Shown here: positions 38,096 to 48,386 of the stretch, in pieces
Position numbering within the stretch: position 1 is the stretch's first letter
How the letters are laid out: each line of letters begins with the position of its first letter
Source of the DNA: Spirulina sp.
GTDB lineage: Bacteria; Cyanobacteriota; Cyanobacteriia; Phormidesmidales; Phormidesmidaceae
DNA length: 64,000 nt
Direction: 5' to 3'
Assembly (NCBI GenBank): GCA_044070495.1
Contig: JBIPSI010000016.1
Location: forward strand, 32,001 to 96,000
The notes under the pieces: model-generated
Told to the model about the DNA's origin: nothing
Seen by the model: only the letters and a program-made list of their open reading frames with translations
Databases searched by the model: none
Translations under genes and position numbers: made by a program

Positions 38096-38753
38096 GTATA
38101 TAACTATTCCGAAATCAGCCTCTCGGCAGGGTGATCAGAATTAGAGATCCCAGGGTTCTTAAAGAACCCTGGGATCTGAGTTTCCAACTATTCCGAAATT
38201 AGTCCTTCGATAGGGAGTGGCTCAGGAATCACGGCAGATTGTGTTGGTCACTCCGTTTCCAACTATTCCGAAATTAGCCATTCGGTAGGGTTGCTTGCCA
38301 GTTCGCTTGGTATTGCTAACGGTGCAATTGCCCAAGTTTCCAACTATTCCGAAATTAGCCCTTCGGTAGGGCAGATCAGGCCAAGGTGCGCAAGCACTAC
38401 GGTATCACGTTGTTTCCAACTATTCCGAAATTAGCCCTTCGGTAGGGCTACTTCGTCATGCACGTCGTCTTGCTTACCTGACCTCAGGAGTTTCCAACTA
38501 TTCCGAAATTAGCCCTTCGGTAGGGGCTGAACAACAAACCTTGACAGGAGAACAGCAAAACAAGTTTCCAACTATTCCGAAATTAGCCATTCGGTAGGGG
38601 GTAAGAGCAAGGTATTAACGACTCTGGCAACTCCGAGTAGTTCCCAACTATTCCGAAATTAGCCCTTCGGTAGGGACCTGATGCTAACGCGACCAATATC
38701 CTTGGTCTTTTTGCTTGGTTTCCAACTATTCCGAAATTAGCCCTTCGGTAGGG
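38096..38753 (-). CRISPR. CRISPR array 1: 8 repeats plus 1 degenerate terminal repeat
   Basis: 36-bp repeat GTTTCCAACTATTCCGAAATTAGCCCTTCGGTAGGG (+ strand) at 38180, 38255, 38336, 38412, 38490, 38564, 38640, 38718; degenerate copy at 38096. The minus-strand form ends in GAAAC and degeneracy lies at the left end. Confidence 0.97.
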
Positions 38754-39709: not shown

Positions 39710-40357
39710 ATGGTTACGATTCAACTTCGGCAATTAGAGGTACCCCCAGGGCAGCGTCTGGTGCTGCGCGATGTAAGCTGGGCCGAGTTTAATGCCATTT
39801 TGGCGGAATTGGGGGAGCAACGCAGCACCCGCATTGCCTACGACCACGGACTGTTAGAGATTATGGCCCCTTTACCCGAACACGAGTATTTTAAGGAAAC
39901 CATGGGTGATGCGGTTAAAGATATTAGTGAAGAACTAGATTTAGATTACGAAAGTTATGGGTCTACCACCTGGAGAAAGCAGGCGGCCCAGGCTGGCATA
40001 GAACCCGACAATTGCTTTTATATTCAAAACGAAGCCCTGGTACGCGGCAAACTTACCTTAGACCTAGACCAAGATCCACCCCCAGATTTAGCCCTAGAAA
40101 TTGATCTCACTAGCAAATCGATCCATCGGTTTTCGATCTATGCGCGGCTAGGCATACCCGAAATTTGGTGCTACGACCAAGGCCAACTGACGGTCTACCG
40201 TTTGCAATCTGGAGCCTATCAATCGGTGGCCCAAAGTCTGGTTTTTCCGATGCTTAAGGTACAGGAATTGCCCCACCTAATTGAAGCCCACCGCACCCAA
40301 GGACGGCTGGCCCTACGCCGAGCGGTGAGAGCCTGGGTGAGGGAGCAGATTCAATAA
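39710..40357 (+). CDS. Uma2 family (DUF820) endonuclease-like protein
   Basis: LEIMAPLPEHE, GSTTWR, EPD.CFY, PPPDLALEIDLTS, YARLGIPEIW. Confidence 0.93.
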   Translation: MVTIQLRQLEVPPGQRLVLRDVSWAEFNAILAELGEQRSTRIAYDHGLLEIMAPLPEHEYFKETMGDAVKDISEELDLDYESYGSTTWRKQAAQAGIEPDNCFYIQNEALVRGKLTLDLDQDPPPDLALEIDLTSKSIHRFSIYARLGIPEIWCYDQGQLTVYRLQSGAYQSVAQSLVFPMLKVQELPHLIEAHRTQGRLALRRAVRAWVREQIQ

Positions 40358-40422: not shown

Positions 40423-42234
40423 GTATCCGACTATAACGGTTCTCGATAGAGTGAGATACACCGTTGCTAGGTTCTAGATCCCCCCAGTACCTAGCTGTCT
40501 AAGTTTTACTCTATACCCCCCTTATCAAGGGGGGCAGGGGGGATCATCACAATGTACTTTACCCAAGTGACATCCGCTCTAACTATTCCGAGAATAGTCC
40601 CTCGTTAGGCGATTTCCAATTAAAGACACTGCATTTGACGGCGACACACTGTTGTTTCCAACTATCCCGAAATTAGCCCTCCGGTAGGGGGACCTTCTTC
40701 TTCAAGAAATGCCTGATGTTGATGGAGAAAACTCGTTTCCAACTATTCCGAAATTAGCCCTTCGGCAGGGTTCCTGGAGCCTAGTCAACAAGTGGAACAT
40801 GATTCGCACCTTTGCGTTTCCAACTATTCCGAAATTAGCCCTTCGGTAGGAAACATAGGAGAGTAAGTATGAAACCCTGTGGAATTAATGGTTTCCAACT
40901 ATTCCGAAATTAGCCCTTCGGTAGGGTAGGTTATTGGGCAGGTGAGATTACATTTTTCTTCGGTTTCCAACTATTCCGAAATTAGCCCTTCGGCAGGGTC
41001 TTTCGCGCCCTTGAAACAGGGGACGCAAGCGGCCTACTTGGTTTCCAACTATTCCGAAATTAGCCCTTCGGTAGGGCCGCTACCTAAGCCTATCAAGCGC
41101 AATGCTAAGCCTGTGTAGTTTCCAACTATTCCGAAATTAGCCCTTCGGTAGGGCACCCCGCACACGCCGACCAACAACAGACCAATAGGACTTTAGGTTT
41201 CCAACTATTCCGAAATTAGCCCTTCGGTAGGGCGTCCCAGCCCAGCCCAGATCAAGGCCAAGGGTGCTGTGACTGTTATGGGGTTTCCAACTATTCCGAA
41301 ATTAGCCCTTCGGTAGGGTAATGGTGAAATCCAAAACCGAAGCTGGGGGATTGGTTTCCAACTATTCCGAAATTAGCCCTTCGGCAGGGCTGGCAAAACT
41401 TCACCGAGGAGTTGATCGAGGAGGCTATAGAGTTTCCAACTATTCCGAAATTAGCCCTTCGGTAGGGGGTCGCACATTCAACAAGTGTTGAGCACTGCTG
41501 CAACTGAGTTTCCAACTATTCCGAAATTAGCTCTTCGGTAGGGCAACACTGACAATCGCTCTGCTGACTCTTCTACATGCTTTGGTCGGTTTCCAACTAC
41601 TCCGAAATTAGCCCTTCGGTAGGGCACAGAAAAAGAAAATATTGTAGACGGGTTCTATGAGCTAGGGTTTCCAACTATTCCGAAATTAGCCCTTCGGTAG
41701 GGAAGGCTCCTGAAAAAATTGGAGAAGGCCAGGTGGTCCAAGTGTTTCCAACTATTCCGAAATTAGCCCTTCGGTAGGGGGAGAATAGCACTGCCCAAGA
41801 GGTCATTAGCAGTCGTTTCCAACTATTCCGAAATTAGCCCTTCGGTAGGGAAACAGCTTCTCCGGAGCAGGTTCCAGCTCTAGTCTAGGTTTCCAACTAT
41901 TCCGAAATTAGCCCTTCGGTAGGGGCGTTCCAGATTTGGCACTTCGGTTTCACTAAAACAGGCTAGTTTCCAACTATTCCGAAATTAGCCCTTCGGTAGG
42001 GTTCCGTACAATTTGATTGACTTTGTTACGCTTCTGATTGTTTTGGGGTTTCCAACTATTCCGAAATTAGCCCTTCGGTAGGGTCGTGCCCCCTTTGGTT
42101 CTTACAATGCAGGCGTTCTTCTATAACTAAAGACCTCAGTAAGTACCTTAATCAAGTCGTGCCCCCTTTGGTTCTTACAATGCAGGCGTTCTAGATTCGT
42201 TTCCAACTATTCCGAAGTTAGCCCTTCGGTAGGA
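40423..42234 (-). CRISPR. CRISPR array 2: 20 repeats plus a MITE-split degenerate terminal repeat
   Basis: Same 36-bp repeat from 40654 to 42199; regular spacers about 35-50 bp plus one anomalous 115-bp spacer at 42084-42198. Confidence 0.97.
40432..40581. mobile_element. MITE-like element inserted in the terminal CRISPR repeat
   Basis: Imperfect 29-bp TIRs TATAACGGTTCTCGATAGAGTGAGATACA / TGTACTTTACCCAAGTGACATCCGCTCTA; internal CCCCCCTTATCAAGGGGGG hairpin; ACTA duplicated at the junctions. Confidence 0.65.
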
Positions 42235-42471
42235 AAGTTACGATCAATGGTGGAAAACCACAAAGGATCTCCATCACACTCTAGCCTACCCAAACCGAGA
42301 GGCTGTCCCTAGAATCTGCCAAACATTAAGCCCCCGTGATACGGCGTAGCAAACCGCAGTAAAACGTTATGGTTCGCAGGACAGAGCGAAGAAATCCTTA
42401 AATCTGAGCCGTAATCATTGCTCTTGCCCGTAGCCTTGGCCTTAACGCTCCGCCGTTCCGACACCTAGGCC
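42235..42471. promoter_or_regulatory. Probable CRISPR leader and divergent promoter (array 2 leftwards, cmr operon rightwards)
   Basis: Non-coding gap between the inferred first repeat and the cas10 start; positional inference only. Confidence 0.5.
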
Positions 42472-44157
42472 ATGCCCTCGCCTGTCTATACCGCCATCAC
42501 CTTTGCCCCCGTGCAGGGCTTCATCGAAAAATCGCGCAAACTGCGAGATCTCTACGGGAGTTCGCTAATTTTGTCCTACCTGGCGGATCAACTTTGCGAT
42601 GCCGCGAGGGCCACCCTAGCCAGCCCTAATGCCCAATGGCCAGAGGATCCCGTCATTTCCCCAGCCCACATTAACGTGACCCAAGGCACCCCCAACCAAA
42701 TCCTGATTCGGGGAGAGTTTTCTGAGCCTGTCGCTGCCCAAGCCTTCAAAACCGCTTGGCGCGACCTGTGCAACACCTGTCGAGCGTGGATCGAAACCCA
42801 GGTTAGCACCCAACCCAACGGCCAACCCTGGGCCTACCACTGGGCGCGGCCTTGGCAAGAATGGGTCAACCATGCCTGGGAATTTTTCCATGCCACTGGC
42901 CCCAGCCCAGAACAGGCCAAACAAACCTTGATGGCCAAAAAACAAGCCCGTGCCTGGACGGGGGTGAACTGGGTGGGCGAAAGTTCTACCCTGTCGGGGC
43001 TAGATTCGCGGGCGTGGCCCTTACTGGGGCGGCACTCTCCCCACCAACGCCCCAAGGCCGAAGAAGAGACCGAAGTCACCACCTTTTACCAACAGCTCAG
43101 CGAGGCCATCGGCGCAACCGGAGAAGCCATCATCACCCCCAGGGAACAGCTCAGCATTCCCGAACTGGTGAAACGGCTGGTGACGGTGGAGGCCGTGGTG
43201 GGCCACAACCCAGAACTGGGTACCCTAATGAGCTTTAAAGACCTCAACCGCTGGCACGATCCAGAGGTAGACGACCTGCCCGACGAAGCCCAGCGCCGTC
43301 CCGAAGACTCCCAGCCGGGACGCTGGACAGGCTGGTTTCAGGGCGATGGGGATCGTGTCAGCGACCATTTACGGGGACAATCCCCCGATGCCCTCCACGA
43401 CTTTAGCCATCAACTGCGGCGGTGGGGTCGCCAGTTGCCCCGTCATCTGCCCAAAGCCACCACCCAGCGCCGCACCCTAGATCGCGATGGGCGGATCATC
43501 TATGCAGGCGGCGACGACTTCCTGGGCGTCCTCTATCGCAATGAACCCGACCCACCCTTGGCCCCCGCCGAGGCCGTGGCTTGGCTGTCGCAGTTTCGTT
43601 CCCACATTTGGAGTCTGCACCAGCAGCCGATTACCGTCAGCGTGGGCTTTGTGTGGGCGGCCCCCAACGTGCCCCAGCGAGACGTGTTGCAGCACTGCCG
43701 CGAAGCCCAGGACTCGGCCAAGCAGCACGGACGAGATCGCATTGCCTTTCGCCTTCTGTTTAACGGTGGCAACTGGCTAGAGTGGGTCTGTCCTTGGTGG
43801 TTGCTAGAGGCGGGGTTGCTGGAGTCTTACCGAGATCGCAACGGGGTGCAGGGAACCACCAACGCCCCCAACTGGACACATCTCTATAACGACATCGCCA
43901 CCCTAGAGGCCCGCCACGGCTTTGATGCCCAGGGTGATGTGGCCCTAGCCCTGGTGACGATCTACTTTGGAGAAGACCTCTGTACCCTCATCCGTCAGCA
44001 CCGTTGGGATACCCCAGACCGCACCGGAATTTTGGGCCACTCCGCCCCAGAGGCCATCGCGATCACCGCCTGGGTGATCGCCCTCGCCAAGGTCGGCTTC
44101 CATCTGCATCGCCTTGGGGTTAACCGGGACTACATCGCTACCCCCATAGCCGCCTAG
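42472..44157 (+). CDS. cas10: Cas10/Cmr2, short form without HD domain
   Basis: N-terminal ITFAPVQGFIEKSRKLRDLYGSS, GDGD, palm motif IIYAGGDDFLG, ITVSVG. Confidence 0.95.
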   Translation: MPSPVYTAITFAPVQGFIEKSRKLRDLYGSSLILSYLADQLCDAARATLASPNAQWPEDPVISPAHINVTQGTPNQILIRGEFSEPVAAQAFKTAWRDLCNTCRAWIETQVSTQPNGQPWAYHWARPWQEWVNHAWEFFHATGPSPEQAKQTLMAKKQARAWTGVNWVGESSTLSGLDSRAWPLLGRHSPHQRPKAEEETEVTTFYQQLSEAIGATGEAIITPREQLSIPELVKRLVTVEAVVGHNPELGTLMSFKDLNRWHDPEVDDLPDEAQRRPEDSQPGRWTGWFQGDGDRVSDHLRGQSPDALHDFSHQLRRWGRQLPRHLPKATTQRRTLDRDGRIIYAGGDDFLGVLYRNEPDPPLAPAEAVAWLSQFRSHIWSLHQQPITVSVGFVWAAPNVPQRDVLQHCREAQDSAKQHGRDRIAFRLLFNGGNWLEWVCPWWLLEAGLLESYRDRNGVQGTTNAPNWTHLYNDIATLEARHGFDAQGDVALALVTIYFGEDLCTLIRQHRWDTPDRTGILGHSAPEAIAITAWVIALAKVGFHLHRLGVNRDYIATPIAA

Positions 44158-44167
44158 GAATCACTGA

Positions 44168-45232
<1,065 letters not shown>

Positions 45233-45317
45233 TCCCAATCCCCCGCACAGGCACACCGCTGGTCACCAAAATCCCAGCCCTCCCCCCCAGCCCCTTCACA
45301 CTTTCACACTTTCACCC

Positions 45318-46127
45318 ATGTACCACAAAGCCTACGGCATCATCGAAACCCTAGCCCCGCTCCATATAGGGGCCAGCGCCGGAGAAGAAACCGGAAACCT
45401 CAACCTGATTTTTCGCGACCAGTTCACCCAAACGGGCATTATTCCCGGTAGCTCGATTCGGGGGCGGTTCCGGGCCGATATGCGGCAGATCGACGGAGCT
45501 TCTGCCCAGCAGTGGTATGGCCATGAGGCCGTGGCGGGGGCAGAGGATGGCGGCACCACCGAAGCCCTGGTGAAGTTTGAGTATGCATCGTTGGTGTGGC
45601 TGCCAGTGTTCTGTCCAGGCCAGCCGATTTTATGGGTAACGTGCCCTTGGCTGCTGAAGCGCTACCAACGCATTGCGGAGATTGCCGATCCGATTCCCGA
45701 CCCCTACACAGCCTCCCCCGGTCTTCAGGGCCGCCAGGTGGGCACCGGAGGCAAAGTGTTGTTTTTCAACCTGGGCTTTCTGACGCTGGAACATGAGGTG
45801 GATTTGTCCCCCTGGATTCCGGCGGGGGTAGATCTGCGGGCCGATAGCTTAGTGGTGGTAGACAACCGCGACATCAGCATGATCCACGACATGGCCCTCT
45901 ATCGCCAAAGCCGGGTGCGCCTAGAGGATGACCAAAAGAAAGTGGCATCGGGCGCTTTCTTTAATGTGGAAGCCCTACCGGAGGGCTGCATTTTGGTGTT
46001 TCCGGTTGCCCTCAAAGCGCCAGACTGGCAACCCTTTGGTTCGGCCCAGACCCAGGAACTTTACTTTGGCGGGCTAGAATCCATCGGCTTTGGCCGTTGT
46101 TACGTCACCCTAGCGGGAGGGAATTAG
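45318..46127 (+). CDS. cmr4: Cmr4 (Cas7 group RAMP)
   Basis: TLAPLHIGA, IFRD, IPGSSIRGRFR, FNVEALPEG, FGGLESIGFG. Confidence 0.92.
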   Translation: MYHKAYGIIETLAPLHIGASAGEETGNLNLIFRDQFTQTGIIPGSSIRGRFRADMRQIDGASAQQWYGHEAVAGAEDGGTTEALVKFEYASLVWLPVFCPGQPILWVTCPWLLKRYQRIAEIADPIPDPYTASPGLQGRQVGTGGKVLFFNLGFLTLEHEVDLSPWIPAGVDLRADSLVVVDNRDISMIHDMALYRQSRVRLEDDQKKVASGAFFNVEALPEGCILVFPVALKAPDWQPFGSAQTQELYFGGLESIGFGRCYVTLAGGN

Positions 46128-46129
46128 TC

Positions 46130-46525
46130 ATGGCTTGGGAATCCTACGGACTCGATCAACTGGCTCAACAACTGGTGTTAGATGCCAAGGCCAGGGAACC
46201 GCAATCCCTGAATCAGGCCTACAAAATGCGGATGGCCACCGCCTACGGCCTAGAGCGTTTTTGGGGCGAACATCTGCGGCTGCAACGGCGAGAACTGAAT
46301 GCCTCTCTGTTTTGGCAAGAAACCTGGGCCGCCTTGGTAACGGTGATGGCCCGCGCTGGGGTCAACCTGCCGAATCAGCGGGTGAACTCCGACGATGTGG
46401 CCTCCATTCGCGCTATTTCCGAAGCCCTGTGGCAGTTGCCCCTCAGCGACCAGCGGGTGGCCCTAGCGGTGTTGACCCAGCTTTGCGACAGCCTCGTTTG
46501 GTGGACGCAGCGCTACAAGGGGTAA
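46130..46525 (+). CDS. cmr5: Cmr5 small subunit (Cas11)
   Basis: 131-aa helical protein between cmr4 and the Cmr6-like RAMP; AYGLERF, WWTQRYK. Confidence 0.75.
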   Translation: MAWESYGLDQLAQQLVLDAKAREPQSLNQAYKMRMATAYGLERFWGEHLRLQRRELNASLFWQETWAALVTVMARAGVNLPNQRVNSDDVASIRAISEALWQLPLSDQRVALAVLTQLCDSLVWWTQRYKG

Positions 46526-46649
46526 GTCGGGTTCACACACCCGTAACGCACTTGATTTATAAGGCTTTGATGCCTGACGCTAGCCCATCCTCCAGACTTC
46601 CAACCCTCCCATTGCGCTGATCTGGCTTAGGTTTCAGCTTTTTTACCCA

Positions 46650-48386
46650 ATGCCCTCGACCATGCCAACTTCACCTAACATCCCAAACATAACCACTCGC
46701 GTACCCATGATGTTTCGGGCACAGGTGCCAGGTCGCTGCCAACTTCAGCGCATTGATCCACAGCGTAGTAAGGACGGCATCGATCAAGATGTAGAGCGTT
46801 GGGTGGATGAGTGGATTGATAAAACGAGCGACGATCCGCCCCAATCTAGCCGCACCGAAAACAGCCGCGTGTACGACATCACCTGGCGGTTTGTCACCAA
46901 TGGCGGCCAAGACGATGGCATCATTCGTCCGGTGATTGGGGCCTATGGCTGGCCTGTATATCCGGGCAGCAGTATGAAAGGAGCCTTTCGCCAAGCCTGT
47001 ACCATTACCCAAGCCGACCGTTACTGTGGACGGGCCGTTGGCCAAGATTTCCAGCCTGGTATTTTGCGATTCCACGGGGGCTATCCCACCAGTACCGACT
47101 GGACGGATGGCCTGGTGGATATCATCCACCCTCAACAGGATCGCCAGGTTAAGCAGGAACAAACGACCAGCGCCTTTGCCCAAATTTCCCTCTATCAGCC
47201 CCAGTTGCGGTTTGCCATCTCCAGCACCGAACCCCTAGAGGCCACGGAATGGGAGATCATTTGGCAAATTTGGGAGCGGGCGTCGCACAACGGCCTGGGC
47301 TGCCGCGTTAGTGCGGGCTATGGCCAGGTTCTCTTGCCTGCGGATCGCCCAAAAAATGGGGATTCTGGTGAAGTCCTATTCCAAGCCCATCTAAAGGGGC
47401 AGGGGCAAGCGCCTAAGTTGATTGATCAGGCTGGGGAGTTTCGGCCCAATGTATTCCGGGCGGCGGTGCGGGGCCATGCCTTGCGATTATTTGGTGGCCT
47501 AACTTCGGCAGAGCAGGCGGAGGCGTTGGTCAACGGTCTCTTTGGCAGTGTGCGAGGCAGTGGCGATGTGGGACTGCTGGCCCTCCAGTTTCAAACTCGC
47601 CATTTAACCTTGGACAGCTACGGCACCGGGAAATGGGAGCAGCCCACCTATGCCGTAGATGGTGATCTATCTTGGCGACTTACCCGATCCTTACCAGATG
47701 CCGACCAGCGGACAGCGTTAGCAAATTTGGTGCGGGCGCTGATGCATTTTTCCATGGTGTTTGGCGGCTTTGGCAAATCCTGGCGACGGGCCGATCATCG
47801 CCTCTTTTACCCCGACTATGCCGAGCAACCCAACAAGCCCCTGATTGGTTGCCACTGGCAATGGGGGGCCGAGTCCCTTCAGCAGAACTATCAAGTTCGC
47901 AAGTCAGAGCAAATTCCCTCCTTCCTAAATGCCGTACGGGGCGTGGCGCGGCAATGGATTCGGCTCCAGGGGGCCGAGTCTAACCAGCGGGCCACCCACT
48001 GGCGCGAAGCTTGGCACCCGCAGACGGTTCAAGTGTGGGGGCGCGTAGCCACCCACCAAGACGACAGCCTCGCCATCGAATGGTTGCACCGTCCCTATCA
48101 AGAGGCGATTCGGGCGGCTGGCATCCCCGAAGGATCGATCTACAAAACCTCGGTCACGGGAGAACTGGGGCGCATTGGTCGTCTATGGCATCGGATGTAT
48201 CCTGTGGTGCGGCTGGCAAAACGGAAGGATGACCCCCAGGGCAAACCCAGGGCCATTCTGCCGCCAAATCCCCAGTATTTAGAACTTCTGACCCTTTTTC
48301 CGGATGATTCCACGGAATACCAGCAATTTCTGCAATTTCTTCAGCAGCAGCAAACGGCGTTTACCCCGCTTTGGCCAGCACCCTAG
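46650..48386 (+). CDS. cmr6: Double-RAMP protein, Cmr6-Cmr1 fusion
   Basis: First RAMP: YPGSSMKGAFR and GLGCRVSAGYG. Second RAMP: EFRPNVFRAAVRGHALR and GGFGKSWRR. Confidence 0.85.
   Translation: MPSTMPTSPNIPNITTRVPMMFRAQVPGRCQLQRIDPQRSKDGIDQDVERWVDEWIDKTSDDPPQSSRTENSRVYDITWRFVTNGGQDDGIIRPVIGAYGWPVYPGSSMKGAFRQACTITQADRYCGRAVGQDFQPGILRFHGGYPTSTDWTDGLVDIIHPQQDRQVKQEQTTSAFAQISLYQPQLRFAISSTEPLEATEWEIIWQIWERASHNGLGCRVSAGYGQVLLPADRPKNGDSGEVLFQAHLKGQGQAPKLIDQAGEFRPNVFRAAVRGHALRLFGGLTSAEQAEALVNGLFGSVRGSGDVGLLALQFQTRHLTLDSYGTGKWEQPTYAVDGDLSWRLTRSLPDADQRTALANLVRALMHFSMVFGGFGKSWRRADHRLFYPDYAEQPNKPLIGCHWQWGAESLQQNYQVRKSEQIPSFLNAVRGVARQWIRLQGAESNQRATHWREAWHPQTVQVWGRVATHQDDSLAIEWLHRPYQEAIRAAGIPEGSIYKTSVTGELGRIGRLWHRMYPVVRLAKRKDDPQGKPRAILPPNPQYLELLTLFPDDSTEYQQFLQFLQQQQTAFTPLWPAP

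Follow-up and report, generated by a model that had tools for sequence, protein, structure and literature searches.

A duplicated spacer segment in a Cmr-associated CRISPR array of a Spirulina genome as a probable scar of off-target Cas1-Cas2 integration

The DNA analysed here, a window of 64,000 nucleotides from Spirulina sp. (assembly GCA_044070495.1, contig JBIPSI010000016.1, positions 32,001 to 96,000), carries two CRISPR arrays next to a set of type III-B-like Cmr effector genes. In one of these, array b, the spacer nearest to the presumed leader is interrupted by a 36-bp insert that is flanked on both sides by the same 37-bp segment, almost all of it spacer DNA. The features of this unit make it very probable that it is the scar of a single off-target, full-site spacer integration by Cas1-Cas2. 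In particular, we favor off-target integration because the duplication has the length of a repeat, the insert has the length of a spacer, the undisrupted form of the spacer exists, integrases are encoded elsewhere in the genome, and a second scar is present on another contig. Mis-integration by Cas1-Cas2 with duplication of spacer DNA had been proposed in an earlier, sequence-only reading of this stretch, and our findings support that core idea as far as the sequence can show.

A repeat-family search identified a perfect 37-nt direct repeat (GTCGTGCC...GCGTTCT) whose two copies, at 42083-42119 and 42156-42192, are 100% identical, lie 73 nt apart from start to start, and enclose an AT-rich stretch of 36 nt at 42120-42155. 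A perfect 37-mer recurring at a distance of 73 nt cannot be chance. When read directly from the letters, the bases immediately outside the two copies are unlike (G versus A on the left, T versus A on the right), which fixes the length of the duplication at 37 nt and that of the insert at 36 nt, in full agreement with the lengths and coordinates given in the sequence-only reading. Neither the 37-mer nor the insert has a further copy in the 5.31-Mb assembly, at up to 3 or at up to 8 mismatches. Together with the AGATTC that follows the second copy, the two copies and the insert make up a 115-nt 'spacer' between the repeat copies at 42048-42083 and 42199-42234 (Table 1), compared with 35-50 nt for the remaining 18 spacers of array b. 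The duplication starts at 42083, the final G of the 36-nt consensus repeat, so that its proposed start at the repeat boundary is correct to within one base. It had also been called repeat-sized, and it does have the length of a repeat; that length, 37 bp, is the one found in the type I-D and type III-D arrays of this genome (see below) and not the 36 bp of array b itself. The GC content of the insert is 30.6%, that of the genome 56.7%, and that of the other spacers of array b 36-62%; as a pointer to a foreign origin of the insert this low value is only suggestive.

Table 1. Coordinates in the window of the scar, the two arrays and the neighboring Cmr genes.
Feature	Positions	Strand	Remarks
First copy of the 37-bp target-site duplication (D)	42083..42119	+	Final G of repeat R2 plus 36 nt from the start of the original spacer
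Insert (X), 36 bp, spacer-sized	42120..42155		30.6% GC, single in genome
Copy 2 of the 37-bp duplication (D)	42156..42192	+	100% identity; contigs of runs X1 and X2 join repeat end straight to 42156
Non-duplicated end (6 nt, AGATTC) of the original 42-nt spacer	42193..42198	+	Contig pieces cover 42156-42223 unbroken
Repeat R2, consensus copy	42048..42083	-	Plus-strand end ...GGTAGG/G gives the AGG/G of the junction mimic
Leader-proximal repeat R1	42199..42234	-	Substitutions A19G and G36A (plus-strand numbering)
CRISPR array b	40574..42234	- (presumed crRNA strand)	36-nt repeat GTTTCC...GGTAGGG (plus strand), 20-21 copies, left-end copies degenerate
CRISPR array a	38096..38753	-	Repeat as in array b, 9 copies, left end degenerate, about 1.9 kb from array b
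Presumed leader, 237-bp gap between array b and cmr2	42235..42471	-	94% identical in relative G075
Cmr (type III-B-like) effector gene set	42472..48386	+	Pfam; NCBIfam matches below curated cut-offs
Cas10/Cmr2	42472-44157	+	Pfam
Cmr3	44174-45232	+	Pfam
Cmr4-like RAMP	45318-46127	+	Pfam
Two unassigned open reading frames of the Cmr set	46135-46620, 46650-48386	+	Position after the Cmr4-like RAMP

A related strain carries the undisrupted 42-nt spacer, the form that the sequence-only reading had proposed to look for in relatives. Two wastewater metagenome runs from two studies (X1 and X2) contain contigs, 95 and 94 nt long, in which a repeat end of 26-27 nt is followed without a gap by the sequence of 42156-42223. 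This sequence comprises the 37-mer and AGATTC and runs 25 nt into the next repeat, with 2 letters differing. These contigs read repeat, 42-nt spacer, repeat, and the insert is absent from them. In depth (55.5 and 6226.6) they agree with the contigs that cover the leader and the start of cmr2 in the two runs (48.8 and 5998.1); the leader contigs differ from the window at 13-16 letters over 289-397 nt. The fact that the 37-mer must have begun as one copy supports the plain form as the ancestral one. The 115-nt unit was matched in none of 60 other genomes, and among the matches listed for 52 genomes of the genus none covers the spacer part; two relatives (G075 and G005) have the leader and cmr2 region in common with the window and carry different spacers. 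(In four runs with partial matches the bin over the insert, 42124-42150, was uncovered, which taken alone is no evidence of absence.)

The same observations bear on two explanations that do not involve integration into the spacer. One is that a mobile element had both the duplication and the insert beforehand and that the whole 115-nt stretch was taken up from it as a single oversized spacer. Its position between two repeats, and nothing more, speaks for this scenario, which we regard as scarcely conceivable given that the other spacers of this repeat family measure 23-60 nt, that the plain 42-nt form is found in two runs, and that the 115-nt stretch occurs in no phage, plasmid or contig searched. 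In particular, the sequence-only reading had named a contiguous copy of the stretch in a phage or plasmid as an outcome that would tell against it, and a blastn search of phages and plasmids at E up to 10 found no match to the unit. The other explanation is an assembly artefact, in which a spurious loop of duplication, insert and duplication was built into a genome that truly has the plain 42-nt spacer. The source reads were not checkable, arrays are rich in repeats and assemble poorly, and the occurrence of a 37-nt repeat length in both scars could in principle be a k-mer effect. Such a loop, however, would require reads that join the duplication to the insert and the insert to the duplication, and the insert occurs nowhere else in the assembly. 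Moreover, the two scars lie on different contigs, have a III-D junction motif in common and contain inserts of spacer length, for none of which is there an assembler reason, and 37 is not a default k of common assemblers. We therefore consider an artefact highly improbable.

Because the scar locus is without cas1 and cas2 (among the open reading frames scanned with Pfam between 31488 and 49526 none was a cas1, cas2 or cas6), the integrase would have come from elsewhere in the genome. Full-length profile matches identified two cas1 genes, each beside a cas2 and both on contigs other than that of the window. One (adaptation genes at about 145.4-148.1 kb) is part of a type I-D locus on contig C1 that encodes Cas3', Cas10d, Csc2, Csc1, Cas6, Cas4, Cas1d and Cas2 and is adjoined by a 55-repeat array; the other (Cas1-Cas2 at about 29.6-30.9 kb) is part of a type III-D locus on contig C20 that encodes Csx10, Csx19, RAMPs, Cas1 and Cas2 and is adjoined by a 25-repeat array. 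A locus without cas1 or cas2 and two intact Cas1-Cas2 modules elsewhere are what the suggestion of adaptation in trans, made from the sequence alone, had anticipated. The repeats of the I-D and III-D arrays are both 37 nt long (those of the III-D array being identical in 25 of 25 copies) and that of array b is 36 nt long, so that the 37-bp duplication fits the I-D and III-D repeats in length and does not fit the repeat of its host array. Spacers of the I-D array measure 34-42 nt, with a mode of 36 nt (19 of 54) and a single spacer of 39 nt (1/54). In a sister genome, a III-D array whose leader is 90% identical has 165 repeats and 164 spacers of 33-49 nt; here 36 nt is the commonest length (36/164), and 39 nt is found in 21 of the 164.

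Three further observations concern these loci. Within the I-D operon, an MntA/HepT type VII toxin-antitoxin pair lies between cas6 and cas4 (C1, locus L035:12192-13105). In the III-D array, spacers 2 and 3 (C20:31389-31506) overlap by about 35 nt with a 5-nt shift and one mismatch and thus sample the same target region twice, which suggests recent, possibly primed, III-D adaptation. A fourth array, a small one in which a 37-nt repeat (GTCACAATC...GTTGAAAG) occurs 4 times, lies at C5:49046-49292, on a contig without either cas1 match.

The position of the cuts points to one of the two modules. When Cas1-Cas2 integrates a spacer, the segment between the two cuts is doubled, and the cut in either strand marks its 5' end on that strand. 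The same strand-cut rule is described in a passage of PMC6698737. At the scar, the cut on the plus strand falls at ...CGGTAGG/GTCGTG (the slash marks the cut), and the III-D array reads ...GCCGAGG/GTCAGA where its leader meets the repeat; the hexamer AGG/GTC is thus common to the two at 6 of 6 positions, and its frequency at random oriented positions of the genome is 2.5e-4. We made sixteen junction comparisons in all, from four references, two scars and two strands. Against the plus strands, the III-D reference scored 6/6 at this scar and 5/6 at the second scar, which is described below, and the best of the other comparisons scored 4/6. The I-D junction, GGCC/CTCGCC, agreed with the scar junctions at 1-2 of 6 positions in either orientation, and the junction between array b's own leader and R1 at 0-2 of 6. 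All three related III-D arrays with a visible leader (G000, G005 and G074) retain AGG/GTC, and beyond the hexamer the repeat starts that follow AGG in III-D relatives vary (GTCAGA, GTCAAA and GTCCCG). Note that the repeat of array b ends in AGGG, so that any spacer starting with T creates AGG/GT. This is so at 8 of 29 junctions; the full AGG/GTC is found at only 2 of the 29, one of which is the site of the scar.

The presence of AGG/GTC across the end of a repeat and the start of a spacer explains why the duplication starts at the repeat boundary without any part being played by array b's own integration site. It lies, moreover, on the strand antisense to the CRISPR RNA (crRNA) of array b, and a cut at array b's own site would fall on the opposite strand. 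A ruler of the host array measuring away from the repeat, the direction proposed earlier, explains the boundary less well than a copy of the III-D junction. (Canonical or ectopic acquisition in array b was likewise rejected; what is duplicated is spacer sequence plus one repeat base, and its fit to the III-B repeat, when the two are aligned at the junction, is 7-8/37.) On these grounds the III-D module on C20 is the best candidate for the acting integrase and, we think, rather likely to have been the one. The same off-target integration could instead have been made by the Cas4-Cas1-Cas2 module of the I-D locus on C1, whose genes are intact, whose repeat is also 37 nt, and whose modal spacer length is that of the insert; its junction fits the scars so poorly, and a 39-nt insert like that of the second scar would be so rare among its spacers, that we hold this second candidate to be unlikely.

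To look for like structures we searched all contigs of the assembly for direct repeats of 24-45 nt with exact copies spaced 55-100 nt apart, and carried out two further scans that tolerated mismatches. Besides the four arrays, tandem repeats and families of palindromic elements, one clean unit was left, at C27:22932-23044 (locus L043:1433-1545). It consists of a perfect 37-nt duplication around a single-copy insert of 39 nt; the lengths are exact and both parts are single in the genome. The sequence upstream of it is ...GATCCCAGG/GTTCT, which gives the junction CAGG/GTTCT and hence AGG/GT. This shorter motif is found at 1.4e-3 of random oriented positions, corresponding to about 3e-3 when it is treated as a motif fixed beforehand and tested over two orientations. 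The second scar sits between convergent open reading frames and inside a palindromic element, the terminal motif of which, GATCCCAGGGTTCT, has 114 copies in the genome (for example at C16:70150, C20:12788 and C6:153631), each of them offering AGG/GT. In the relative G075 a homologous palindromic element is found at the same place in single copy and without the insert. A second scar of like geometry supports the attribution of the first to off-target Cas1-Cas2 integration, and since the duplicates are still 100% identical in both scars, both events must be recent. Candidates at C1:90794, C29:19799 and C6:153641, together with the near-exact ones, were rejected as scars; they are either larger imperfect tandem duplications, whose inserts continue the similarity of the flanks, or repeated palindromic elements. 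A two-repeat mini-array at C20:12819-12931, which is in reverse orientation and some 18 kb away from the main III-D array, also adjoins a palindromic element; it keeps the 3' half of the III-D repeat and has a different 5' part.

Duplications with filler DNA also arise in repair, and a role of Cas proteins is predicted here from the sequence. A duplication with filler made without CRISPR, whether by break repair, by template switching or by a tiny mobile element with a long target-site duplication, would nevertheless leave unexplained why 37 bp were duplicated twice, why the inserts are 36 and 39 bp, why one duplication starts at a repeat edge, and why AGG/GT is present at both scars. In addition, the 36-bp insert is single in the genome at up to 8 mismatches, and terminal inverted repeats were not seen in it. 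An origin of this sort thus seems very unlikely. Two related possibilities were rejected. For a transposable element, including a miniature inverted-repeat transposable element, an insert of only 36 bp that is single-copy at up to 8 mismatches is unsuitable, and a 37-bp duplication is far beyond the transposon range, target duplications of transposons being typically 2-15 bp. Simple tandem duplication by slippage does not account for two copies that are parted by an unrelated 36-mer, with the AGATTC after copy 2 unlike the start of the insert and the periodicity filter passed.

We propose that the scar arose by off-target integration in the following way. Cas1-Cas2 loaded with a 36-bp prespacer would have taken ...TAGG/GTC on the plus strand for a leader-repeat junction and cut the plus strand between 42082 and 42083. 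The minus strand would have been cut 37 bp away, at what is now the border of 42119 and 42120, by the ruler for the length of the III-D repeat. Both ends of the prespacer would then have been joined, and gap filling would have doubled the 37 bp between the nicks, the product being a unit of pseudo-repeat, spacer and pseudo-repeat within the first spacer of the Cmr array. The site was probably chosen for the likeness of AGG/GTC to the III-D leader-repeat border (...GAGG/GTC). A broader version of this proposal, which may be called 'friendly fire', is that the III-D integrase reads only a minimal AGG/GT(C) plus a 37-bp ruler and thereby hits both the array of another system, in antisense, and an abundant palindromic element; we see the chances of this broader version as evenly balanced. 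Experimental work on the site rule of this adaptation module is not known to us, no literature search having been aimed at it.

The placement of the scar next to the leader depends on the orientation of array b. Reverse-complemented, the repeat finishes with ...GTTGGAAAC, and its GAAAC end is presumably the usual 3' end of crRNA. Based on this repeat end and on the degenerate repeats at the left ends of both arrays, the crRNA strand is predicted to be the minus strand and the gap between array b and cmr2 to be the leader; given this orientation, the interrupted spacer is leader-proximal, as the sequence-only reading had it. A scan of the leader for promoters and terminators was uninformative (1 promoter-like site versus 1.8 expected), as were RNA folds of the repeat and of the 115-nt unit (z-scores of -0.45, -0.38 and -1.13). 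The first repeat does have the two substitutions ascribed to it earlier, which are A19G and G36A. We found no link between them and the integration event: G36A is common to R1 and the first repeat of the relative G075, in which all spacers are different. The scar should be neutral for crRNA. Directly after R1, the crRNA strand still carries all 42 nt of the original spacer unbroken, and a type III guide, the extent of which is set from the 5' handle and by 3' trimming, should thus be unchanged; the insert, being without an upstream repeat, should yield no guide.

Several observations weigh against the attribution of the scar to a stray III-D integrase, or limit it. Compared over its whole body with the III-D repeat, the duplication agrees at no more than 14 of 37 positions at the first scar and 9 of 37 at the second, so that the likeness is limited to the junction. 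The junction motif was spotted after the fact at the first scar, leaving the second as the sole independent test, and the orientation of the second scar is ambiguous, the III-D junction being matched at 7 of 10 positions by its minus-strand end as well. As regards III-D in particular, spacers of its array measure 35-43 nt and none of the 24 is 36 nt long. No protospacer was found for either insert: as an exact pattern, the 36-bp insert had 0 matches in viral, genome and metagenome contigs and the insert of the second scar had 0 matches in genome and viral contigs, and blastn of the second unit against phages and plasmids returned only chance matches, with E of at least 1. A foreign origin and any protospacer adjacent motif are consequently unproven. 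No second scar inside an array was seen in about 160 non-redundant spacers (23-60 nt) that relatives carry with the repeat of array b, nor in the 164 spacers of the sister III-D array. (As exact patterns, the III-B repeat was found at only 5 loci in genome contigs and 1 in metagenome contigs, and the III-D repeat at 0 loci.) In principle the plain form may be a later deletion between the two copies of the duplication, its polarity having been argued and not observed. Finally, the best read run contained 0.24 of the sampled words and none contained half, and what is known of the structure comes solely from the assembly.

Most of the record of off-target integration comes from in vitro experiments and overexpression (natural examples were not searched for), and the E. 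coli study of Nivala and colleagues, taken up below, reportedly also includes natural examples in other species. It is natural scars that show whether the process matters in evolution, and the present genome holds two clean, recent ones. The scar does not represent a new kind of system, the process that probably lies behind it being known from the laboratory. It is made somewhat more interesting by its location in the array of another system, by the second scar, and by the fact that a site rule can be read from it. The junction held in common with the III-D leader-repeat border amounts to a testable rule for site choice by the III-D integrase, which would combine a 37-bp ruler with three bases of the leader and two to three of the repeat. 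An integrase encoded elsewhere would have physically reached an array that has no cas1 and cas2 itself, and the product illustrates a way for a repeat-spacer-repeat unit to form around a brand-new 'repeat'. If the 'friendly fire' proposal is true, such scars reveal the target rule of the III-D adaptation module, and they would show how existing arrays come to contain pseudo-repeats, from which new arrays could be built.

The closest biochemical parallel is with Cas1-Cas2 of Pyrococcus furiosus, for which passages of PMC6698737 describe full-site integration at non-CRISPR sites that resemble the repeat borders and lie one repeat length apart. As in those passages, the cuts at our scar are paired on opposite strands one repeat length apart, and border nucleotides and spacing appear to set the site. 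The P. furiosus work, as described there, is archaeal and was done in vitro on plasmids with a 30-bp spacing; in our case, in contrast, the last three leader bases and the first two or three repeat bases are common to site and border, and no likeness is clear in the interior. Passages of PMC6607411 and PMC7054753 attribute off-target integration in vivo in E. coli to Nivala et al. 2018, and the seeding of new CRISPR loci by such integration is attributed to the same work in passages of PMC6607411, PMC6698737, PMC7054753, PMC11788318 and PMC9456107. The idea, put forward in the sequence-only reading, that events of this kind seed new repeats is thus already in print (Nivala et al. 2018, as relayed by PMC6698737 and PMC6607411). 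Like the 'neo-CRISPR' units of Nivala, Shipman and Church (2018, Nat Microbiol 3:310), as these are cited, our scar combines a spacer-sized insert with a repeat-length duplication of non-repeat DNA away from the leader-repeat junction, and a working guide is not expected from the product. Unlike that work as cited, which used overexpressed Cas1-Cas2 of E. coli type I-E, the present scar is natural, cyanobacterial and 37 bp in its duplication; it also lies inside a spacer of another CRISPR system, with a sister scar that points to the III-D integrase.

Ectopic acquisition in the middle of an array is described for type II-A leader-anchor mutants (bioRxiv 10.1101/2022.05.19.492656), and ectopic acquisition in type II-A is reported for S. 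thermophilus (PMC5338259). The scar resembles these cases in that the new spacer lies within the array and not at its leader end. It differs from them in what was duplicated: they duplicate a true repeat, whereas here a spacer was duplicated and the repeat served only as a look-alike of a leader end. A search of the literature by title and by the start of the abstract did not find a scar inside the spacer of another system, which is no claim that none has been described.

The host locus has several further features. The GTTTCC...GGTAGGG repeat is confined to one contig of the 74-contig assembly. Arrays a and b look like a single array that was split by insertion or rearrangement; they are parted by about 1.9 kb, with a gene of the Uma2 family (a putative restriction endonuclease) at 39710-40357 between them, and array a is flanked on both sides by copies of a palindromic element (GATCCCAGGGTTCTT..AGAACCCTGGGATC). 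The Cas10/Cmr2 homologue is short, at 561 aa, and Pfam reports in it only the N-terminal Cmr2 and second palm domains and no HD domain. In the relative G005 (contig C257, locus L007), about 930 bp of unrelated sequence, at 567-1500, lies between the last repeat, which is a perfect consensus copy, and the homology to the window's leader and cmr2. In the relative G075 (contig C299, locus L006, 714-1536), the dozen repeats nearest to the leader have scattered point mutations and the repeats farther away are perfect, a pattern that reverses the one usual in arrays.

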